Position numbers and translations under genes: made by a program. DNA of 64,000 nt. Origin: a virus (Duplodnaviria; Caudoviricetes). The stretch lies in the IMG/VR virus record IMGVR_UViG_3300032227_000318, positions 1 to 64,000 of that record. One strand, 5' to 3'. The notes beneath the pieces are model-generated. The model ran no database searches. It worked only from the letters and a program-made list of their open reading frames with translations, and was not told where the DNA came from. Positions within the stretch are counted from its first letter, which is position 1, and each line of letters begins with the position of its first letter. Below are positions 4,755 to 20,691 of this stretch, piece after piece.

Positions 4755-7700
4755 TTATGCTGTATATTGTAGCCAAATATCACCGGCTGCGCCTCCAGTT
4801 GGCGATCCTGATGTCGTGATCATTATAGAACGGTATGCATTGTTTGCTACGGTACCGCCATATGTGCCAGCTACGGCAAGCGAACTCAATCCGCTGATGG
4901 AACCACCGGTGATTGATACTGAACTTGAAGATTGAGTTCCTAATGTGCCAATTGTATTTGCTTTAGCGAATGCAGCAGTACCTACAGTGTTCGCACCAGT
5001 ACCTACAGCCGTGTTAGCTCCTGCTATTGTAGCAGAAGCAAAGTTATTGGCTGCTGTACCAACGGCTGTGTTTGCACCTGATAGAGTTGCTAAGAGATAC
5101 GTATTAGCTCCTGTACCAACGGCTGTGTTTGCACCTGATAGAGTTGCTAAGAGATACGTATTAGCTCCTGTACCAACGGCTGTATTGGATCCATTTTGTA
5201 CGGTAATCATAAAAGCATTAGCACCAGCGGCGGCTGCTGTAGCAAAAGCATTAGCTCCTGTACCTACTGCTGTATTGGCTCCAGATAAGGTTGCTAAGAG
5301 ATACGTATTAGCTCCTGTACCAACGGCTGTATTGGCACCTGCTAGAGTTGTTAGTAGATAGGTGTTTGCTCCTGTACCTACAGCGGTATTTGCACCGGCA
5401 ATTGTGGTTAACAAGTAAGTATTTGAACCATTCTGTACCGCAATCATAAAAGCATTGGCGCCTGCTGTGGCGGCTGTAGCAAAAGCATTAGCACCAGTAC
5501 CAACCGCTGTATTAGCCCCAGCAATTGTAGCCAACAGGTAAGTATTAGCACCAGTACCTACGGCGGTATTTGCGCCAGCTATGGTTGCTAATAGATAGGT
5601 GTTGGCTCCAGTACCTATAGCCGTGTTAGCGCCATTCTGTACAGCAATCATAAAAGCGTTAGCGCCTGCTGTAGCTGCGGTAGAGTATGCGTTCGCGCCT
5701 GTGCCTACGTCCGTGTTAGCGCCTGCTACTGTAGCAGAAGTAAATGCGTTAGCACCTATACCTGTATTGAAAGCAAGAACGTTAGCTGCGTTAGCCTTAT
5801 CAAATGCAAAGTCATTTACCCATAGAGGAGGAGAACTGCTTCCATTTGATTGAAGCATTTGGCCTGCGGTACCAAAGTTAGCACCTCCAATACCTACAGC
5901 ACCAAATCTGTTGATACGAAGCTTTTCTGTCGATTCTCTAGAACCGATAGCAGTACCAAACATAAGTGTGGCGCCAGCGTTAGCTTGTTCATTTACAGCG
6001 TATACAAATGCTCTTGATCTTTCATCATCAGTCAAATCAGAATCATTAGAAGCAAATTCGATCATACCAATTGGTTGACCAGGATTTACAGTTGTATCTG
6101 TACCTGTAATTCTGAAAGTATTATTATGCATATTGAATGCATAGATCGTTGTTGAAGTCACAGTTGCTTGTGATGCTGTTAGGTTATATGTGCCTAGACC
6201 ACCAGTACCACCAAAGTATTCTTTAACGTAAGTGCCGCCAAGTACATTTAATCCTTCGTCAGTTACATAGTGACCAACGTTGATCTGACCAGAAACAACA
6301 GAACTGATTGTTAGAACATTTCCTGAGATAGAACCAGTACCTACGAATACTTCACTTGAACCGCCTGAAATTTCTAGTAGTTTAGCTGGTGTTGTAGTAC
6401 CAATACCAACAAAACCGTTGGCATCAATGACCAATCTAGATGCAGCAGCCGTGCTGAAACCAACTGTATTTGCACCAACGCGATACATGCCTGTGAAATT
6501 ATCAGTTGTCCATGAATATGCAGGTCTCAGTGCAGTGCCAGTGCTTACAGAATAGAATCCAGAAGTAGTATTAACATAAGCATTTGCAAGTAGAGAGCCG
6601 TTTAATGTTACTGTGGTATTTGGTAATGCAGCATTAGCTACAATAGAAGCTGCTAGTGTAGCAATATTTACAGTATTAGCAAATCCAAATGCGCTCTGTG
6701 CTACAGACAAAGCTAATGCTGGTGTATTATTACTTACAGCAAGTGAAGCTAGGTCAAGAGCTGTCTTAGCTAAAACATTAGCATAGTTTGCTGTTACGTT
6801 GGCTGTAAATGCTAAAAAGTTAGCTGCATTAGCTTTATCAAAAGTAATACCATTGTTAAGATTAGCTGTAGTTACTGCACCACCAACTTGAAATGCTAAG
6901 ATATTGGCGGAGTTAGCTTTATCATAACCACCGGCGGCTACAGTGGCGGTTTGACTAGCAGTGAAAGCAAGAACGTTAGCAGCATTAGCCTTATCAAATG
7001 CAGTACCTGCTGCTGTCGCGGCAAAAGAATTTGCGCCTGCACCAATTGCTGTATTTGAACCATTTTGTACGGTAATCATAAAAGCGTTAGCGCCTGCACC
7101 GACTGCTGTATTAGCTCCTGCTATGGTGGCTATGGCAAAATTGTTGGCCGCAGTACCAACAGCCGTGTTTGCGCCCGCTATAGTTGCTGAAGTGAAAGCA
7201 TTAGCGCCTGCACCGACTGCTGTGTTTGCGCCAGTTAAAGTTGCTAGAAGATATGTGTTTGCACCTGTACCTACTGCTGTATTGGCTCCAGATAAGGTTG
7301 TTAATAGGTAAGTATTAGCTCCTGTGCCAACCGCTGTATTAGCTCCTGATATGGTTGCTGAAGTGAAAGCATTAGCGCCTCCGCCAACTGCTGTGTTTGC
7401 ACCAGCAATTGTTGCTGAAGTGAAAGCATTGGCTCCAGTACCAACGGCTGTGTTGGCGCCATTCTGTACTACGATCATAAAGGCATTGGCACCAGCTGCG
7501 GCGGCCGTAGCATAAGCATTAGCACCGATACCGGTATTGAAAGCAAGTAAGTTAGCAGTATTTGCTCTATCAAATGCGGCGGCTGCATTAGAAGAAACAG
7601 TTGTGACTGTGTTTGAAAGTAGATTTACTGAAAGGGCTGAAGCTAAATTAAATGATGCTGTATCAGAAGTTACTGTAGAAACATTTAACTGGAAATAGAT

Positions 7701-7865
7701 ATTTCCTTTTCTGATAGGAGAAGTAGTTATTCTTAATCCTGCATTGTTTGAAATAAACGTAGCAAGAGTGTTTGCATTGATATCATTTACCTCAGTAACC
7801 AATTGATTGGTTCTGATTCTCCATTCATCAAATGTATTTGTAAGTGCTATATTAGCTAATGACAT
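4755..7865 (-). CDS. Long tail fibre protein, 1036 aa
   Basis: N-terminal TNTFDEWRIRTN fibre-attachment motif, two repeat blocks, GFVGIGTTTP fibre motif, C-terminal GDIWLQY. Confidence 0.8.
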   Translation of the reverse strand: MSLANIALTNTFDEWRIRTNQLVTEVNDINANTLATFISNNAGLRITTSPIRKGNIYFQLNVSTVTSDTASFNLASALSVNLLSNTVTTVSSNAAAAFDRANTANLLAFNTGIGANAYATAAAAGANAFMIVVQNGANTAVGTGANAFTSATIAGANTAVGGGANAFTSATISGANTAVGTGANTYLLTTLSGANTAVGTGANTYLLATLTGANTAVGAGANAFTSATIAGANTAVGTAANNFAIATIAGANTAVGAGANAFMITVQNGSNTAIGAGANSFAATAAGTAFDKANAANVLAFTASQTATVAAGGYDKANSANILAFQVGGAVTTANLNNGITFDKANAANFLAFTANVTANYANVLAKTALDLASLAVSNNTPALALSVAQSAFGFANTVNIATLAASIVANAALPNTTVTLNGSLLANAYVNTTSGFYSVSTGTALRPAYSWTTDNFTGMYRVGANTVGFSTAAASRLVIDANGFVGIGTTTPAKLLEISGGSSEVFVGTGSISGNVLTISSVVSGQINVGHYVTDEGLNVLGGTYVKEYFGGTGGLGTYNLTASQATVTSTTIYAFNMHNNTFRITGTDTTVNPGQPIGMIEFASNDSDLTDDERSRAFVYAVNEQANAGATLMFGTAIGSRESTEKLRINRFGAVGIGGANFGTAGQMLQSNGSSSPPLWVNDFAFDKANAANVLAFNTGIGANAFTSATVAGANTDVGTGANAYSTAATAGANAFMIAVQNGANTAIGTGANTYLLATIAGANTAVGTGANTYLLATIAGANTAVGTGANAFATAATAGANAFMIAVQNGSNTYLLTTIAGANTAVGTGANTYLLTTLAGANTAVGTGANTYLLATLSGANTAVGTGANAFATAAAAGANAFMITVQNGSNTAVGTGANTYLLATLSGANTAVGTGANTYLLATLSGANTAVGTAANNFASATIAGANTAVGTGANTVGTAAFAKANTIGTLGTQSSSSVSITGGSISGLSSLAVAGTYGGTVANNAYRSIMITTSGSPTGGAAGDIWLQYTA
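4945..5800 (-). repeat. Tandem 57-nt (19-aa) coding repeats GANTAVGTGANTYLLATLS; further blocks at about 6960-7560, 450-1440 and 1-230
   Basis: Directly visible in DNA and protein. Confidence 0.9.
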
Positions 7866-8071: not shown

Positions 8072-11000
8072 TTACTGGCTCAAAGCTGGAAGTGCAATTG
8101 CTCTCATGTCATGCAGAACAGGATATGTTGTAGTATCACTTGTTGTCATGACAATCTTAAGAGCAAACTGCTTAAATGTGTTAAATGTACCAGAAGCAGT
8201 TGAATATGAAATAGCATTAGGATAATCTTTAGGTCTAAATTCATATTCGATAATTTGGTTGTATACTTTCTTTGATGAGTACAATGATTGAAGTGTTTCT
8301 TGGTTCATCAAGACCCAACTCTTATCAGAGAAACTATCACTATCGTTTACATTCTTTACCTTGTAGTACACATAGATGTTTGTACCTGGTGGTCTATAAG
8401 CTGTAACAAATACACGAAGATCACCAGCATCAAATGTATCAGCGAGAGTAACTGTTCTGCTGATATACTTAGCTAACACTGGCCCGCCACTTGATGAGTT
8501 TTCACCCACAATGATTGCGCTTGCATTTGTTGTTGTTGCGTTACTTGAGTTGAATACAATTGACGCTGTATTGATATAGCCTGAGCCAAGACTATCAAGT
8601 GTTATAGAAACGATAGATCCTGTAGTATTAGTTGTTGCAAATGCGTTTGCTCCAGAACCTTCTGTTGAAGTTATAGAAACAGAGATATTCGCATTTGAAG
8701 CATATCCAAAACCTGCTGCTGTGATTAGAATATCATCATTGGCTAAAGTAGCATCATCAATATAGTTTTCAACTGCAACAACACCCGCTTTGTCTGTATA
8801 AAGAATAGGTGAAACGTCTTGATTTGTTGTGGTCATTACAGCTTTGAGGCGATATGAACCATCACTTACTGCATCAAATGTTACGCGATCATCAGGCACC
8901 TTATTTGTATCAGGAATATAACTGTAGTAGTTTGATCCTGAATCATAAGAGTGTGTGTATGAAATAGCTGTTGCCGGTAATGTTGTATCTTCAACGTGAG
9001 TATACATCATGTCAACATTAACAGTATTTTTTGGCTTTACATTATACATAGTTACATCGCCGCTGGTAACAAACTTGGCCTTATACAGCTTGAATGTTAG
9101 ATCGTCTAGCTGAATTGGATCCCATGTAGATGCATTCTGCGACTTGAAGAATGAACCAAGATACGGTTGCGATGACACAATTCTATTTGTTCCAATAATC
9201 TTCTCACCTACTTCTGATACGAATACTTCGTACACCAAGCTAGAACTTGTGATTACGATAGCATATTCACCCGGTTCTAGATAAACTGGCGAATTGAAAG
9301 TAAATTTAGTAGGCACACTTGCATTCTCAGACACGCGAACTTTATCCGCTTTGATTGTCTTTTTTGAGAATGGAACCATTTGTATAGAATGTGGGATACC
9401 GTTCACTGTAGGTCTAATTTCTACATTGACAGGCAGAACAGGATCTTTTGTTCTGAAGTAAATATCAATTGCAGTGAGGAATACGCCATTTGGATAAGCA
9501 CCTTCTTCAACAAAGAATGTCTGTGCAATAGGATCAGTTGAATTATCTTTATTGTGAGTTAAGAAGTCTTCAACCCAATAAGTATGGTCTGAACTATCAT
9601 CAAGTGTTAAAGCATAAACTAATTGATTTACAGAACCTGATTCTGTTACAATCTTATCAACAGGAATAAAACCGCTCTTATGAAGAACGGATTCTTCTGT
9701 TGTCATTGGATCCCAATTGATGTTTTCTACATTATCACGAACTAGGTGATTATGATATTCACCAATTTTGTATGCTGACCAACCCTTATTTGTTAAGAAT
9801 GGGTGATCTTCTGTAGCAAATGGTTCATGACCTGCAAATCCATACAGTTCTCTATCGCCTAGATGCGTGATGATTAAATCTGTAACTTTGCTTATGCCGT
9901 TTTTACTTAGAACTTCATCACCGGCCTGAATTTCGCAAATAGGCTTCTTGCTGCCGTCGGCCATGCTAACCATAGCATAAGGTTTGAAACAGCAGCTATT
10001 TGGTCTCTCTGGTCGAGGCGGCGGCCTCTTCGGCGGCGGCAAAGGAGGTGGAGTTGGCGGAGGAGGCGGCGGTGGCGGAGGAGGAGGTGGCGGCGGCACC
10101 GGCGGTCTTGGCACTGGAGAAGGAATAACCGTAACATCTGTGTCATTAATTGTAACACGATTCTTAGTCTGCTTCAGTCCTGATGCAAAGAAATCTATTT
10201 CTGCACGGGTTGTACAGTCTGTAACATCATTCTGCGGAGTATCAATAATACGGAAAATACGTTCACCAGTTCTAAAGAAGTTTGGTGGTATAAAGAACGT
10301 GCCGTCAATAGTACCTTCGCGGTCTGTATACAGACCTGGCGCAACAGCACTGTCATTTTCAATTTTCCAAGCAATATCGTTGCCAATCGTATTTCCTGAG
10401 TTTGCACTAGGAAATGCAGATGTATACCCAAATTCAGTAATAAGGTTGCCGATAGTATTAGCTAATGTCAGTCTTCTTGATACGTTGTCCCAACCTGTGA
10501 CATATCCTCTGATCGCTCTACCGCCTTTTTTATTTTTAGGAACTAAAACGATAGTATTGGAACCACCAGTGCCCCAATAGTTATTGGCCATTGTACTAGC
10601 AAAACGAGGAAGAGTAACAAACGTTGCGTTTGAGTTATCAAAGAACTTATCAAGATTATAGTCACCGATAGCTACAACGGAATTAACGGTGCCAACATTT
10701 CCTGTAACAGAACCTTGAATTGTTGATGAAATAGAAATAGTACCAGATACGTTTGAAACGCTGATAATTCTCTTACGTGGCACATCTCTGCCCTTATCTT
10801 GTAAGGCAGGATTTGGATTTTCTAAATCAAAACGTCTCTTGTTTGAGTGAATGAAACTTTTATTTTGTGTATTTGAACTGACAATAATTTGATCCGCATC
10901 CGAGAATCCATCATTGAACGATGAAACGTTATCGTTTTCATTCAAACGGATTTCATTTGAAGGAATAATATAATCTGTAACATCAACATCATCAAAGAAG

Positions 11001-11314
11001 AACCAAACTCGTCTTTCTGGTCTTAGACCTGAAGCTGTAAAACGAATCTGTTGTGAGCGCATATAAGGAATAATACTTACGTCCTGCACGCCATTATCAA
11101 ATGTGGCCGAGTCTGTGGTCACGATAATTTTTGGATTAGCCGGTGGTGTAGAAGCTGGTGGTGGAGTTTTAGGAAGTACCACTTTACTGCTTTTGTTACT
11201 ATTAGACTTAGAAGCAGAAGTTGGTCTATCACCTTGACTCTCATAAGATTTACCTGGTCCCGCATAGCTTGGGTCATTTCTGGGACTATTACCAGGATTA
11301 CTTCTAGTTGGCAT
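8072..11314 (-). CDS. Baseplate-associated structural protein, C-terminal half of DUF4815-type protein, with polyproline tract and Hint domain
   Basis: IIPYMRSQ, FRTGERIFR, DPIAQTF, QPYLGSFFKSQNASTW and final RAIAL motifs. Confidence 0.85.
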   Translation of the reverse strand: MPTRSNPGNSPRNDPSYAGPGKSYESQGDRPTSASKSNSNKSSKVVLPKTPPPASTPPANPKIIVTTDSATFDNGVQDVSIIPYMRSQQIRFTASGLRPERRVWFFFDDVDVTDYIIPSNEIRLNENDNVSSFNDGFSDADQIIVSSNTQNKSFIHSNKRRFDLENPNPALQDKGRDVPRKRIISVSNVSGTISISSTIQGSVTGNVGTVNSVVAIGDYNLDKFFDNSNATFVTLPRFASTMANNYWGTGGSNTIVLVPKNKKGGRAIRGYVTGWDNVSRRLTLANTIGNLITEFGYTSAFPSANSGNTIGNDIAWKIENDSAVAPGLYTDREGTIDGTFFIPPNFFRTGERIFRIIDTPQNDVTDCTTRAEIDFFASGLKQTKNRVTINDTDVTVIPSPVPRPPVPPPPPPPPPPPPPPTPPPLPPPKRPPPRPERPNSCCFKPYAMVSMADGSKKPICEIQAGDEVLSKNGISKVTDLIITHLGDRELYGFAGHEPFATEDHPFLTNKGWSAYKIGEYHNHLVRDNVENINWDPMTTEESVLHKSGFIPVDKIVTESGSVNQLVYALTLDDSSDHTYWVEDFLTHNKDNSTDPIAQTFFVEEGAYPNGVFLTAIDIYFRTKDPVLPVNVEIRPTVNGIPHSIQMVPFSKKTIKADKVRVSENASVPTKFTFNSPVYLEPGEYAIVITSSSLVYEVFVSEVGEKIIGTNRIVSSQPYLGSFFKSQNASTWDPIQLDDLTFKLYKAKFVTSGDVTMYNVKPKNTVNVDMMYTHVEDTTLPATAISYTHSYDSGSNYYSYIPDTNKVPDDRVTFDAVSDGSYRLKAVMTTTNQDVSPILYTDKAGVVAVENYIDDATLANDDILITAAGFGYASNANISVSITSTEGSGANAFATTNTTGSIVSITLDSLGSGYINTASIVFNSSNATTTNASAIIVGENSSSGGPVLAKYISRTVTLADTFDAGDLRVFVTAYRPPGTNIYVYYKVKNVNDSDSFSDKSWVLMNQETLQSLYSSKKVYNQIIEYEFRPKDYPNAISYSTASGTFNTFKQFALKIVMTTSDTTTYPVLHDMRAIALPALSQ
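9551..9991 (-). other. Hint (intein-like) domain, 147 aa, no endonuclease
   Basis: Block A CFKPYAMVSMADGSKKPICEI..GDEV, block B ATEDHPF, block F VYALTL...HTY, block G THN; +1 residue is Lys. Confidence 0.9.
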
Positions 11315-11348: not shown

Positions 11349-14300
11349 TTAGTTCTTAGAACCAAAAAGAGTTGAGTATGCAAATGATTCTGTTATCAAT
11401 GGTGAATTGGCCCTTAACTGTGCCTGTCTTGTAGTTGGATTTATTGCATCCGCTACAATTAAAGCATCATTTTCGCCCAAGTTTATTATAACGTCAGGAG
11501 CTTGGTTTGTTTCAATCCAAATATCAGATTCAGGCGACAAGTCAACTTGACCAACCCATTGAGCAAGCATATATGGTTGTACTGGAACCCACTTAGTGGC
11601 TAGATTTTGTGTGATAAAATTCTCTTCAGTATAACTTAAAGTTATTGTTGATCCACTTACTTTTGTAGAATTGTTAGACTGTCTATACAACGGCATAAGC
11701 ACTGCTTCTTGAGGCGGTGTTGCGCCACCATAAACTCTATCTACAGCGATGAAGTAATCTGGATTTAATACTTCACCATATCCGTGAGTGGTAAAGTTAT
11801 CTGCAATAATACCATACTTAGTTCTTTCTAGACCGTTTACATCAACAATTGACATATCTGTTGTTGACTTTTCTAGAATAGAGAGTGTCTGATAATATTC
11901 TAAGTTTTCAATGCGTGTCTCAAGCTTACCAATATCTCTCATAGTATAACGCTTGTTTTCAACAAATTCCATATAGACGTTGTTTGTTGAAGCTGTATAT
12001 GGTTCAATGAACATCTTATATAGTATCATTGAATCTTGATCTGGTCTAGGTTCAATAGGATATTGTGATGGTTCACCATCCAGAATCTTGAAAGGAATAT
12101 CACCCTGTTTTGTGATAAGAACAAATGCTCTTCTGGCCAAAAAGTAATTATAGTCAAAAGTAAATGGAGTTCCTGTTACTGGAATTCTATTACCACTGAT
12201 TGTATAGTTAATATTTGTATTTGACTCATTGGCTCTCTTAGGTCTAAAATCAATTGAATCTCTTAAACTGTAAATAGTGCCTGATGAAGAAGTATATGAA
12301 GGTATTATACCATAATCAATATTAGAATAAGAGTCAACTGAGAAATAACCGCCTGAGCCTGAGTGCTGGAACCAATCGAAGCATACGACTAGAGGTCCTT
12401 TTGGTGTGCCGCTTCTAGGAGCAAGAGATATGGTTGAGTGATCATAATGAGAATCTTTTTGTCCATTATCAAAAACATACTTGCTTGTAACATCAGAATA
12501 TGAAGAAAGGCTTGCACCTGCTGATGGAATTGTTGCGCCATTTAAGTCATAGATTTTTGTAACTTGATTAACGTCTGTGTAGAACAAGCTCATCTTTGTT
12601 CCAGGAACCAAAGAAGGACCTGTAATCGATACTTGGCCACTACCACCATAAAGTCTAGTTGTTGTTCCATTAGCTGCAAAGGTATTGTTTGCAGCATGAG
12701 TAGAGAAGTGAGTAGTGTTAGCAGTAACAAGCGTCTTCGTCTTTGCTGCAATAGATGAACCTGAGTTTAGATACACCTTATAGAATACCTTTGCAGTGCC
12801 TGTTGTAAATGTTGTAGAGGTTAGAGTTGCTGTTGGTTCTGCTACTGTAACACTTGTTAAGTCTACGCGAGTGCCATTTGTTCTGAACACCATAAAGCTT
12901 GATAATGTAGATGCTGATCTGCCAGTACCGTCAGTTACACCAACGAATGTTTCACCTGTAGCTGAGGTAATTGTTGCTGAACCACCTGAGAATGTTAAAT
13001 CAGCTTGCTTTAGATATGAATAGTCTTGGTTTTGAATTGTTGATGGAACAATAAACTCATTACCAATGGTATAGACCAAACTATTGAATGCTGAATCGCC
13101 GATAACTGTAAGTCCATTTGCTAGACCATTGTCTTTGCTTAGTAGACTAATATCAGCATTACCTGTCGTGGTAGAAATAGAATTGGCATAAGCAAGAGAA
13201 TTAGCACCAGTAAATGATGTATCAAACAAACTAATAGTATATGTTGCTGTAGCTAAGTTTTGTGTATTAGATGCTGAATAATAGTTGATTGTTCTAAATC
13301 TACCGGTACCAATCTTTGTATTAACACCAATAGCAGATGTTTTGCTATTATAGAATTCAACATTTTGCATCGATGCAGTATCAAAATAACCCTTCATATT
13401 GTCAACATAAACATAGTTGCCATAGTTTACTGTCATTTCTCTATTGATGACAGAAGCATTGGATCTTGCTCTATCAACATCTAGTGATATCTGAGCAATG
13501 CTTTCATACTCATAACCCTTAACGTAAGCTTTACCTGGATCAAGAGTAATTTGGAACTTTGTATTGTCTGTAGGATGGTCATTAACATTAGCTCTAAAGC
13601 GACGAACAGTATAGTTGCCTGACTCATCGAATGTTCTGCGGGCCATTGTATCGCCAAGTTCTGAATAGATTGGATATCTAATCATCTTCTTAACAACACC
13701 ATTTTCAATTCTGAGAAGTTCAACAAACCTCTCATCGTCAATACTATCTAATGTGCGTGTAACAAGATCAAAGTTAATCTTCAATCTAGTTGCGCCAGGT
13801 GCCTGGTAATTAGATGCTTCTTGAGCTGGATCTAATAGAGATGTATCACTTGTTTCATCAACAATTGCTTCTGTAAATTCTAGACCAACTTTAGCATTGG
13901 CTCTTGTACCAAACCTATCAAGTACAATAGTCTGTGATGGTACTTTAACAAAATAACCATTGATGAAGAAGATACTGTCGTTCAGACTTACAAGAGAACC
14001 TGTACCTGTATGTGCAGTTGTTGCAATGTTGGCATAGTATCCTACATTTGACATTAAGGTTGTATTGTTTGGAAATTCTCTGCCTGAAAGGTATTTTACC
14101 ATCAGAACCGGCGGCGCAGTGTTTGTAGCTTCGGCTGTAGCTGAAACATATGCAATAACAGCAGAGTTACCTGATGTGAATGTAACGGCATTTGATTTAA
14201 ATACAGCAGCGGTAACATCTGTGTTTGCGTATGTTGACTCCAAGTTGATGTACTTGGCCCTTGTATCGACTGACAACTGACCGCCTAGAACGATGCTTCC

Positions 14301-14504
14301 GTTCTTAAATATATGATTACCAAATCTTTCGATCTGGTTCTGAAGAATAGTTTGTAACTGAGTAAGTTCTCTGGCCTGAACAGCATAACCGGGGCGGAAA
14401 AGAATGCGATGAAAATTCTTAGACTCATCAAAATCGTCGTAGTATGGAAGAACAGTTGTCTCCGTAGGTACGACTTTTGTATTTGCAATATTTGCGGTTG
14501 CCAT
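11349..14504 (-). CDS. Baseplate-associated structural protein, N-terminal half of DUF4815-type protein
   Basis: PYYDDFD..KNFHRILFRPG..VQARELTQLQTILQNQ, ARRTFDESGNY, NKRYTMRDIGKLE motifs. Confidence 0.85.
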   Translation of the reverse strand: MATANIANTKVVPTETTVLPYYDDFDESKNFHRILFRPGYAVQARELTQLQTILQNQIERFGNHIFKNGSIVLGGQLSVDTRAKYINLESTYANTDVTAAVFKSNAVTFTSGNSAVIAYVSATAEATNTAPPVLMVKYLSGREFPNNTTLMSNVGYYANIATTAHTGTGSLVSLNDSIFFINGYFVKVPSQTIVLDRFGTRANAKVGLEFTEAIVDETSDTSLLDPAQEASNYQAPGATRLKINFDLVTRTLDSIDDERFVELLRIENGVVKKMIRYPIYSELGDTMARRTFDESGNYTVRRFRANVNDHPTDNTKFQITLDPGKAYVKGYEYESIAQISLDVDRARSNASVINREMTVNYGNYVYVDNMKGYFDTASMQNVEFYNSKTSAIGVNTKIGTGRFRTINYYSASNTQNLATATYTISLFDTSFTGANSLAYANSISTTTGNADISLLSKDNGLANGLTVIGDSAFNSLVYTIGNEFIVPSTIQNQDYSYLKQADLTFSGGSATITSATGETFVGVTDGTGRSASTLSSFMVFRTNGTRVDLTSVTVAEPTATLTSTTFTTGTAKVFYKVYLNSGSSIAAKTKTLVTANTTHFSTHAANNTFAANGTTTRLYGGSGQVSITGPSLVPGTKMSLFYTDVNQVTKIYDLNGATIPSAGASLSSYSDVTSKYVFDNGQKDSHYDHSTISLAPRSGTPKGPLVVCFDWFQHSGSGGYFSVDSYSNIDYGIIPSYTSSSGTIYSLRDSIDFRPKRANESNTNINYTISGNRIPVTGTPFTFDYNYFLARRAFVLITKQGDIPFKILDGEPSQYPIEPRPDQDSMILYKMFIEPYTASTNNVYMEFVENKRYTMRDIGKLETRIENLEYYQTLSILEKSTTDMSIVDVNGLERTKYGIIADNFTTHGYGEVLNPDYFIAVDRVYGGATPPQEAVLMPLYRQSNNSTKVSGSTITLSYTEENFITQNLATKWVPVQPYMLAQWVGQVDLSPESDIWIETNQAPDVIINLGENDALIVADAINPTTRQAQLRANSPLITESFAYSTLFGSKN

Positions 14505-20055: not shown

Positions 20056-20691
20056 TTAACCTCTGCACATATTGTCGTCACTTAAAGTGGCAACATTAAA
20101 TTTATTGTGTTTTTTGCCTTTGTTGTTTTGGCCCATTTTTTTACCTACAATTTTCATATTTTCTAATGCTTGACCTGTTCGTTTTTTACCTGTATTAGAA
20201 GCAACTCTCTTTTCAATTGATTCTGGACTTTGTTTTCTTCCTAACAGTTTCATTCTTTGTTTTTCTATACTTTCTAGGCTTCTTTTACGGCCTTTTAAAG
20301 AATTACTTATTTTTTGTCTTTCTTCTATTGTTTTATGATCACCTAAACGATTTTTATTACCTTTTGCCTTTTGAATAACAACATTTCTTTTATAGCTATC
20401 TGTTGACCAATGACCAAAATGGTGATTGTTTAGGTTATAATATCGGTCACCAAGTTCTTCATTTTTGATCTTAGATAACCATTTGTGTTCTTCTTCTAAT
20501 AAATCTTTCCTTGTAGTATAGATTCTACTTAATATTCTTCTTTTAAAATCTTGAGGTCTATGTTTATATCCTTGTTTCATCCAAGTTGATGAACAAATAT
20601 AACCATCATTTTCTTTACCCCATCTACATCCAATATAGTATCGCTTATGTTTCTTGTCGTACCATAGATAAACAAATCCATATTTTTCCAT
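20056..20691 (-). CDS. Free-standing GIY-YIG homing endonuclease (Seg-like) with NUMOD3-like repeats
   Basis: GFVY...YYIG...Y..SS, YYN, then repeated K.S.ESIEK motifs; inserted between gp25 and gp6. Confidence 0.85.
   Translation of the reverse strand: MEKYGFVYLWYDKKHKRYYIGCRWGKENDGYICSSTWMKQGYKHRPQDFKRRILSRIYTTRKDLLEEEHKWLSKIKNEELGDRYYNLNNHHFGHWSTDSYKRNVVIQKAKGNKNRLGDHKTIEERQKISNSLKGRKRSLESIEKQRMKLLGRKQSPESIEKRVASNTGKKRTGQALENMKIVGKKMGQNNKGKKHNKFNVATLSDDNMCRG

Follow-up and report, generated by a model that had tools for sequence, protein, structure and literature searches.

What is a Hint domain doing in the middle of a phage baseplate protein when the residue that follows it is a lysine? 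The question is raised by a window of 64,000 nucleotides (positions 1 to 64,000 of the IMG/VR virus record IMGVR_UViG_3300032227_000318), in which a mini Hint domain interrupts a VrlC-like protein of a marine phage, 1080 residues long and hereafter P0001, directly after a proline-rich linker. By definition, an intein is followed by a Cys, Ser or Thr (position +1), and bacterial intein-like domains (BILs) that lack such a nucleophile are regarded as rare curiosities of surface proteins in bacteria that for the most part cleave. From comparisons of P0001 with its homologues, of the Hint with its family and of both with known systems, we propose that the insert is a mobile, type-A-BIL-like and self-excising Hint that sits in the interdomain linker of VrlC and is maintained by selection, a reading to which we assign a probability of roughly 0.7.

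Fold and class of the inserted domain

The insert was modelled by AlphaFold2 (residues 437-600, 35-sequence alignment) with a mean predicted local distance difference test (pLDDT) score of 89.8 and a predicted template-modelling (pTM) score of 0.85. Structural similarity search using Foldseek gave 47 listed matches at E <= 0.001, all of them Hint domains, and VIA-align yielded Z-scores of 12-18 to more than 50 Hint entries. The best structural match is BIL2 from the Tetrahymena BUBL1 locus (PDB 6Y75/6TMM), with a Foldseek E-value of 8e-9 and a VIA Z-score of 18.0 at an RMSD of 2.2 Å over 142 residues. The gp41-1 intein (Foldseek E 2e-7 to 3e-7, VIA Z 15.8-16.0), the Clostridium thermocellum type-A BIL (PDB 2LWY; E 1e-6, Z 15.9, RMSD of 1.9 Å over 127 residues) and DnaB mini-inteins (E 1e-6 to 1e-5, Z ~15) are also matched. 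A profile of the family over the whole domain finds 6Y75 (E 3e-9) and 2LWY (E 1.5e-8), and a profile of the C-terminal half alone has 2LWY as its best match (E 3e-9); a single-sequence search with the Hint does not reach 2LWY. Against Pfam, full-length P0001 stays under the gathering scores of Vint, Hom_end_hint and Hint, and the excised 164-residue region barely attains the Vint cut-off (27.1 versus 27 bits). NCBIfam gave weak matches to intein-containing proteins alone, and neither database was found to hold a dedicated model for this Hint.

The domain combines the all-β Hint fold with an N-terminal Cys and a block B Thr-x-x-His (C442, T501 and H504). It shares with class-1 inteins the C-terminal His-Asn and the behaviour of an optional, moving insertion at one fixed gene site, and differs from them in having Lys589 where a +1 Cys, Ser or Thr is expected. 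Type-A BILs have the same combination of His-Asn without a +1 nucleophile (HN↓K, the arrow marking the domain boundary); the motifs and the family profile resemble 2LWY, and the location in a variable region is matched by the hypervariable linker of P0001 and by family hosts that include tail fibres and giant surface-type proteins. As 147 residues leave no room for a nuclease and no nuclease family of Pfam or NCBIfam matched P0001, the Hint is free of an endonuclease, and we class it, on these comparisons, as a putative mini Hint of the type-A BIL kind.

The original prediction, an annotation made from the bare DNA letters before this analysis, had described much the same anatomy. It had placed a non-canonical, BIL-type Hint of 147 residues (C1 to HN), lacking an endonuclease, just before a DPIAQTF motif, with Cys at -1 and Lys at +1; the translation confirms these boundaries together with Cys441 and Lys589, and BIL2 and 2LWY, the folds nearest to it, agree with the BIL-type assignment. 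The linker of 40 residues that it noted is present as well, though calling it near-pure proline was slightly generous.

Other Hint classes fit poorly. A type-B BIL is contradicted by the terminal His-Asn (block G), and Pfam Hint_2 has no match to P0001. Pretoxin HINT (PF07591), which matches seven of 35 Hint family members, has no match to P0001 at E <= 1, and the downstream part is the VrlC C-terminal domain rather than a toxin. A Hedgehog-type Hog domain is rejected because the Hint is internal, being followed by 492 residues of baseplate domain, and a BUBL-type BIL because the flanks are a proline linker and the VrlC C-terminal domain, with no ubiquitin family of Pfam matched. A foreign base composition was also rejected: the G+C content of the Hint (33-41%) is similar to that of its flanks, and the CCN-rich linker alone stands out. 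No further Hint copies were found in this virus record.

The closest parallels each share some of these features. The type-A BIL 2LWY has the N-terminal Cys, TxxH and His-Asn, lacks both a +1 nucleophile and an endonuclease, and is found within a variable part of a protein that is not an enzyme; the present Hint differs in its conserved +1 Lys (77% of the clade) and its phage baseplate host, and its family in head-to-tail arrays, copies at the extreme N- or C-terminus and interconversion with +1 Cys forms. The C. thermocellum BIL studied by Dassa in 2004 reportedly has Ala at +1. Phage class-1 mini-inteins such as gp41-1 (PDB 6QAZ) are alike in size, fold and C1/TxxH/HN and also occur in marine phage genes, but the present Hint has no +1 Cys, Ser or Thr, resides in a linker instead of the catalytic motif of an enzyme and belongs to a family with tandem arrays. 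Hedgehog Hog shares the Hint fold (Z 13.8), its G-C-F start resembles the G/C-C-F start seen here, and some family members are likewise C-terminal; the present Hint is, however, internal, has HN for C-terminal cleavage and lacks a sterol-recognition region. BIL2 is the best structural match and a full-length profile match, and offers a precedent for lysine chemistry in a Hint (PMC8616854). It is, however, eukaryotic, has ubiquitin-like flanks and uses an acceptor Lys in the downstream ubiquitin-like domain or in other substrates, whereas the present Hint, only ~22% identical, is flanked by a proline linker and a baseplate domain and has its Lys at +1.

A lysine conserved at one insertion site

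Homologues retrieved with residues 330-760 of P0001 as query are of two lengths. Those without an insert (~850-895 residues) have a short 'PPPPxxPP' linker at the site, with 33-39 residues from the invariant G379 to D594. In 12 metagenomic homologues a Hint occupies exactly the same site; +1 is Lys in all 12, with Hint identity down to 30%, and every one keeps C-C-F (G-C-F in one), TEDHPF and (T/A)-H-N-K. The stretch from G379 to the Hint is 62 residues long in P0001 and 52-174 in Hint-bearing homologues, with 2-12 residues downstream of the Hint; the upstream part is always of low complexity, although its type differs (poly-Pro, Pro-Thr repeats or Arg/Lys-rich). Because insert-free homologues have the short PPPP linker, the proline stretch is best regarded as the native, flexible linker that joins the middle domain of the host to its C-terminal domain, lengthened where the Hint is present. 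Beyond the insert, D594, P595, A597, Q598 and F600 are nearly invariant among homologues, and the spacer between Lys and DPIAQTF, 2-4 residues in close relatives, varies in both length and sequence.

In alignments with canonical relatives, HN↓K falls in register with their HN↓C. With all 12 orthologous inserts and 196 of the 254 family copies having Lys after the domain, the residue is no degenerate accident. The same site is also occupied in a second, 'C-x-A-Y' type of VrlC-like host, with flanks ~27% identical and a match to the PHROGs profile phrog_358: hosts L002, L009 and P0013 bear an HNK Hint with a spacer, and L016 (three copies), L025, L030 and L040 bear canonical HN↓C Hints of the same clade. 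L016 (L016:2-5563), L025, L030 and L040 are giant VrlC-like proteins with one to three tandem Hints and +1 Cys ('HN↓CC(I/M/V)AY'). In P0143 and L033, two tandem Hints lie directly before DPLAQ(S/T)F.

Probable movement between divergent hosts

The closest host relatives of P0001, P0011 and P0012 (path length 0.41-0.45), have no insert, with identities to P0001 of 55-56% in the N flank and 73-75% in the C flank. P0004 and P0005 show the opposite pattern, with 83% identity in the Hint and 33% and 46-47% in the N and C flanks, as does P0013 with 78%, 28% and 27%, respectively. A host tree built from the C-terminal domain by a 'quick' method (57 sequences, ten Hint-bearing) sorts the ten Hint-bearing hosts into three starred clades, all of which have a sister that lacks the Hint, and monophyly of these hosts was rejected by the approximately unbiased (AU) test (delta lnL, the log-likelihood difference, 390; p 5.4e-10). 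The Hints of these polyphyletic hosts nevertheless form one starred clade. The ratio of host to Hint path length is 0.7-1.1 inside the clade of P0001-P0003, 5.8-6.0 to P0004 and P0005 and 2.0-3.3 to P0006-P0010, so that across clades the Hints diverge 2-6 times less than their hosts. Taken together, the insert-free nearest relatives, the polyphyletic hosts, the single Hint clade and the lower Hint divergence indicate an optional, horizontally moving element. Horizontal spread between divergent alleles at one fixed site is the simplest reading of these comparisons; it would resemble the spread of an intein, only without a detectable endonuclease, and the movement may proceed via recombination in co-infections.

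Within the population of P0001, ten variants at least 91% identical to it, from independent metagenomes, have variable columns in 10.7% of the Hint, in 13.2% and 10.2% of the two structural domains and in 45% of the linker. CC and HNK are invariant among these close variants, and the Hint appears to be kept intact by selection and not to be decaying. The IMG/VR loci of the close relatives L082 and L083 end before the Hint.

A large Hint family with a lysine hallmark

An exhaustive HMMER search with a 149-residue Hint query returned 1256 representative clusters at E <= 1e-3, of which 239 remain at E <= 1e-10; by this count the putative family numbers at least 1256 clusters. Re-scanning the top matches and 80 IMG/VR loci gave 254 distinct full-length copies. 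Position 1 is Cys in every copy and the last two residues are His-Asn in 248, whereas +1 is Lys in 196 (77%), Arg in 8, Cys in 16, Ser in 7 and Thr in 4; the -1 position favours small residues (Ser 81, Cys 53, Gly 31, Thr 22). The resulting clade signature is C-F ... T-x-x-H-P ... H-N↓K. On the Hint tree, well-supported branches record four or more switches of the +1 state between Lys/Arg and Cys/Ser/Thr. Hints with +1 Lys are not told apart cleanly from those with +1 Cys, Ser or Thr by any other alignment column, so nothing points to a remodelled active site.

Members of the same clade occur in tail fibres, in giant surface proteins of Bacteroidota and in many unrelated proteins, often in tandem, and VrlC-like proteins are recurrent hosts (L003, L016, L052). 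Head-to-tail arrays are joined by '...HNK-GGS-CF...'. Eleven copies end the protein, their +1 Lys being directly followed by the stop codon ('HNK-stop'), and other Hints form the very start of tail-fibre proteins ('M-CCF...HNK-GGGGGG', L014 and others). Among the latter, L014:3998-6790, L022:3980-6457 and L035:3977-6754 are tail-fibre-like (phrog_5616 / phrog_31), start with M-C-C-F and have a Gly run after the Hint; for them, cleavage at the C-terminal end alone could matter. P0122 (WP_377022980.1, Mucilaginibacter angelicae), of 4119 residues, contains five back-to-back Lys-flanked Hints at residues 2043-2772 together with Laminin_G/Laminin_B domains, and is annotated as 'Hint domain-containing homing endonuclease', yet no endonuclease domain was detected in it; P0123, from a Flavobacteriales metagenome-assembled genome, likewise has five copies. 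The animal Pfam family AXH (Ataxin-1/HBP1 module, PF08517) cross-matches the middle of these bacterial and phage Hints in 12 of 35 members, well above its cut-off and with 97 bits in P0123 (residues 1145-1184).

None of 50,697 cultured-phage records searched by tblastn carries this Hint. The sole matches, both weak and unrelated, are a Hom_end-associated Hint protein of Achromobacter phage JWF and the large terminase of Tetrasphaera phage TJE1.

Predicted self-excision and the fate of the flanks

The conserved residues suggest a sequence of steps that we infer as follows. After translation, Cys442 would form a thioester with the carbonyl of Cys441 by an N-S acyl shift, with T501 and H504 assisting, and Asn588 would cyclise, cutting the bond to Lys589, so that the Hint would remove itself. 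We consider self-excision of the predicted domain highly probable. Its position in an interdomain linker explains why the host can tolerate the insert, as does the viability, in related phages, of a free N-terminus a few residues ahead of DPIAQTF.

The flanks could then persist as separate chains held together non-covalently, as is usual for BILs, or be rejoined through attack of an amine of the conserved Lys589 on the thioester, this being either the α-amine, as proposed for type-A BILs, or the ε-amine, as reported for Tetrahymena BIL2. If excision occurs, two chains would be the leading outcome at a little under even odds, lysine-mediated rejoining would come second as a serious contender, and transfer to another nucleophile would be a minor outcome. 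Overall, we put forward only tentatively that Lys589 is the predicted acyl acceptor, whereby the +1 amine would attack the thioester, cyclisation of Asn588 would free the Hint and the halves would be rejoined without any Cys, Ser or Thr. Rejoining by the ε-amine would leave an isopeptide; the alternative would use the α-amine freed by Asn cyclisation.

For type-A BILs, cleavage is described as the main reaction and splicing by amine attack as one of which they are capable (PMC4031507, PMC7664689); self-cleavage at either end, accompanied by a little splicing, is known for the studied BILs only (PMC4031507), and their splicing was proposed to proceed via attack of the freed amine (PMC4031507). 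BIL2 was reported to join its N-flank to a lysine ε-amine as an isopeptide (PMC8616854).

Three related loci have the VrlC gene divided directly behind the Hint (L003:2738-6335, L005:2648-6258 and L008:1447-5025). The upstream open reading frame (ORF) ends with the Hint and a tail of 27-45 residues, which in L003 reads 'DNSTNPAIG', a vestige of the DPIAQ motif, and the next ORF starts with M, three to four residues and NPIAQTF. This start closely mimics the predicted product of P0001, K plus four residues plus DPIAQTF, and the arrangement looks like gene fission at the site of the predicted post-translational cutting. That related phages have this arrangement indicates that a protein left in two pieces can be viable.

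In favour of cleavage only are the prevailing cleavage by studied BILs, the flexible linker site, the natural splitting of VrlC at various points and the fission in L003, L005 and L008. In favour of rejoining by Lys are its retention across widely differing contexts, the final position of a protein included, its interchange with Cys, Ser or Thr at the same site, the tolerance of tandem arrays and the persistence of a mobile element in a core structural gene whose product is a single chain in insert-free relatives. By analogy, the amine attack proposed for type-A BILs (PMC4031507) and the Lys ε-isopeptide of BIL2, the nearest fold (PMC8616854), point the same way.

Alternative explanations

Several points weigh against a mobile, self-excising Hint. 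The Hint tree (FastTree, 143 columns) is weakly resolved overall. One gain of the Hint followed by many losses may account for its distribution instead of horizontal spread, though the host:Hint distance ratios argue otherwise. No homing endonuclease lies within or adjoining the insert, the only endonuclease-like ORF (20056..20691) being 9 kb off. Purifying selection on a par with that on the host domains is equally expected of a module that benefits the host. Activity across the family is deduced from its conserved residues, and a Hint that only cleaves leaves the retention of Lys unexplained, even as the last residue in those 11 copies.

Of the other explanations, a domesticated maturation device fares best, and we judge it unlikely. 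Here, a cut required for assembly would yield an N-part with the proline rod and a C-part starting at Lys589, to the benefit of the host and with no mobility. The Hint does evolve as slowly as the structural domains, the linker is expanded in Hint-bearing proteins only, and separate chains work in the split-gene relatives of a VrlC that is modular and variously split. A device required by the host would nevertheless sit uneasily with closest hosts that lack it, with polyphyletic bearers, with Hints far more similar across clades than the hosts around them and with the presence of the same clade, often in tandem, in tail fibres, Bacteroidota giant surface proteins and others. On the same grounds we part from the original prediction, which had preferred a domesticated module to a selfish one.

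Covalent coupling is more improbable still. Under this reading, the proline rod would carry a terminal thioester that reacts with a lysine on a different virion protein or a second VrlC subunit, so that the baseplate becomes cross-linked, much as BIL2 conjugates a ubiquitin-like domain to substrates. The length and rigidity of the linker would suit the display of such a reactive end, and BIL2, the nearest solved fold (Z 18.0), is reported to transfer its N-flank onto lysines (PMC8616854). The nearest amine, however, is the +1 Lys of the domain itself, N-terminal copies (M-CCF...) have nothing to transfer, tandem arrays make no sense for a single transfer, and none of the loci examined revealed a partner protein whose occurrence follows that of the Hint.

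That the Hint is an inactive remnant serving as a spacer domain is very improbable. The absence of a +1 nucleophile and of an endonuclease and the sub-threshold full-length Pfam Hint scores are compatible with it, but C1, the block B Thr and His and HN are kept in every orthologue at Hint identities of 30-93%. A dead domain would lose C1, block B and HN, which are conserved in 97-100% of the 254 copies, and the reading is therefore disfavoured. A canonical class-1 intein with its true +1 nucleophile hidden in K-DNST, where Ser592 and Thr593 lie three to four residues past Asn588, is hardly credible and was rejected, since homologue spacers (GG, GN, AS, D, NRD etc.) hold no conserved Ser, Thr or Cys after the Lys and HN↓K coincides with the canonical boundary.

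Host gene and genomic context

The ORF with the Hint and the ORF upstream of it are two halves of one long VrlC-like protein, because both match phrog_358 (2056 positions): positions 5-505 match the upstream ORF, and P0001 residues 588-764 align to positions 1416-1589. DUF4815, which the original prediction had attributed to the Hint-bearing ORF, is found by Pfam in the upstream ORF instead (PF16075, E 4.8e-65) and has no Pfam match in ORF 8072..11314. The coordinates of the features are listed in Table 1.

Table 1. Features of the Hint insertion and its host gene in the window
Feature	Position	Strand	Basis
Upstream gene, N-terminal half of the same VrlC-like protein, 1051 aa, with DUF4815	11349..14504	-	phrog_358, PF16075
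Host gene, C-terminal half of split VrlC-like baseplate protein, 1080 aa (P0001)	8072..11314	-	ORF list, translation, phrog_358, tblastn
Proline-rich interdomain linker, residues 399-438, 29/40 Pro (72.5%), one 14-Pro run	10001..10120	-	residue mapping
Cys441, -1 residue	9992..9994	-	Cys in 11/12 orthologous inserts; Gly in P0057
Mini Hint domain without endonuclease, residues 442-588, 147 aa	9551..9991	-	AlphaFold2, Foldseek, VIA, profiles
Cys442 (C1), predicted N-S acyl shift nucleophile	9989..9991	-	Cys in 254/254 copies; aligns with Hom_end_hint position 1
Block B T501-E-D-H504 (then P-F)	9803..9814	-	His in 100%, Thr in 89% of 254 copies
H587-N588, C-terminal His-Asn, predicted Asn cyclisation site	9551..9556	-	HN in 248/254 copies
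Lys589, +1 residue	9548..9550	-	Lys in 12/12 orthologous inserts, 11/11 close population variants, 196/254 family copies
Variable spacer DNST and conserved DPIAQTF opening the C-terminal domain	9515..9547	-	homologue alignment
DPIAQTF motif	9515..9535	-	translation

The C-terminal half of P0001 has tblastn matches in ~1600 phage records, where they are annotated as VrlC, VriC or adsorption-associated tail protein, and neighbouring genes encode baseplate wedge subunits and the tail tube cap. The host protein thus joins homology to phrog_358 and annotated VrlC proteins with baseplate wedge gene neighbours. VrlC takes the place of T4 gp7 in pelagimyophages and cyanomyophages and is considered integral to the two-layered baseplate (PMC7029224), and the VrlC homologue of Listeria phage A511 was immunolocalised to the baseplate, according to a statement cited within PMC4621102. 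Given the homology, the wedge neighbours and these two reports, the label 'baseplate-associated' in the original prediction is reasonable.

The gap between the two VrlC ORFs (11349-14504 and 8072-11314) is 34 nt. In phrog_358 and many homologues VrlC is a single chain of ~1700-2100 residues, and the split point differs between phages, L003 for example having three ORFs; the protein appears to be modular and prone to gene fission. The window belongs to a 110-kb virus record that is ~67% complete, whose gp6-like protein is closest to the homologue of Pelagibacter phage HTVC008M (40% amino acid identity), and the nearest cultured relative of the phage is a pelagimyophage.

Directly downstream of VrlC lies ORF 4755-7865 (- strand, 1036 residues), which has long arrays of a degenerate ~14-residue motif (GANTAVGTGANxxxxAT...) at both ends, a non-repetitive centre and no PHROG or Pfam match. 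Its product is probably a tail fibre, by analogy with pelagimyophages, where tail fibres come after VrlC (PMC7029224). ORF 20056-20691 (- strand, 211 residues) matches the homing-endonuclease PHROG phrog_314 (E 7e-17) and has no Pfam match; it is wedged between baseplate wedge genes with a 26-nt overlap with the next ORF, and its distance of 9 kb from the Hint makes a connection between the two improbable.

Significance for the Hint family

Within the literature covered, a search on Hint or BIL domains in phage tails or VrlC, on tandem Hints and on +1 Lys returned reviews and the BIL2 note only. Relative to the literature searched, a conserved +1 Lys as the hallmark of a clade, the tandem and terminal architectures, a phage baseplate (VrlC) host with intein-like mobility, and a natural series at one site that runs from no Hint through one or two Hints and +1 Cys to a split gene are new.

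With its catalytic residues intact, this endonuclease-free Hint with +1 Lys appears to act like a mobile intein in a core phage baseplate gene, and the case ties it to a very large clade that is frequent in uncultured phages and bacteria and was found in no paper among the literature searched. The natural variants make the choice between cutting only and cutting plus rejoining via lysine directly testable with a small construct. Should the halves not be rejoined, the locus would be an example of post-translational fission of a baseplate protein that preceded gene fission. If Lys rejoins them, this would add a new reaction to natural protein splicing and provide a means of ligation that needs no cysteine, and the HN↓K Hints, with at least 1256 clusters and often in tandem, would form a separate, widespread class of lysine-dependent splicing elements with the behaviour of mobile inteins, residing in structural genes of phages and surface proteins of bacteria.

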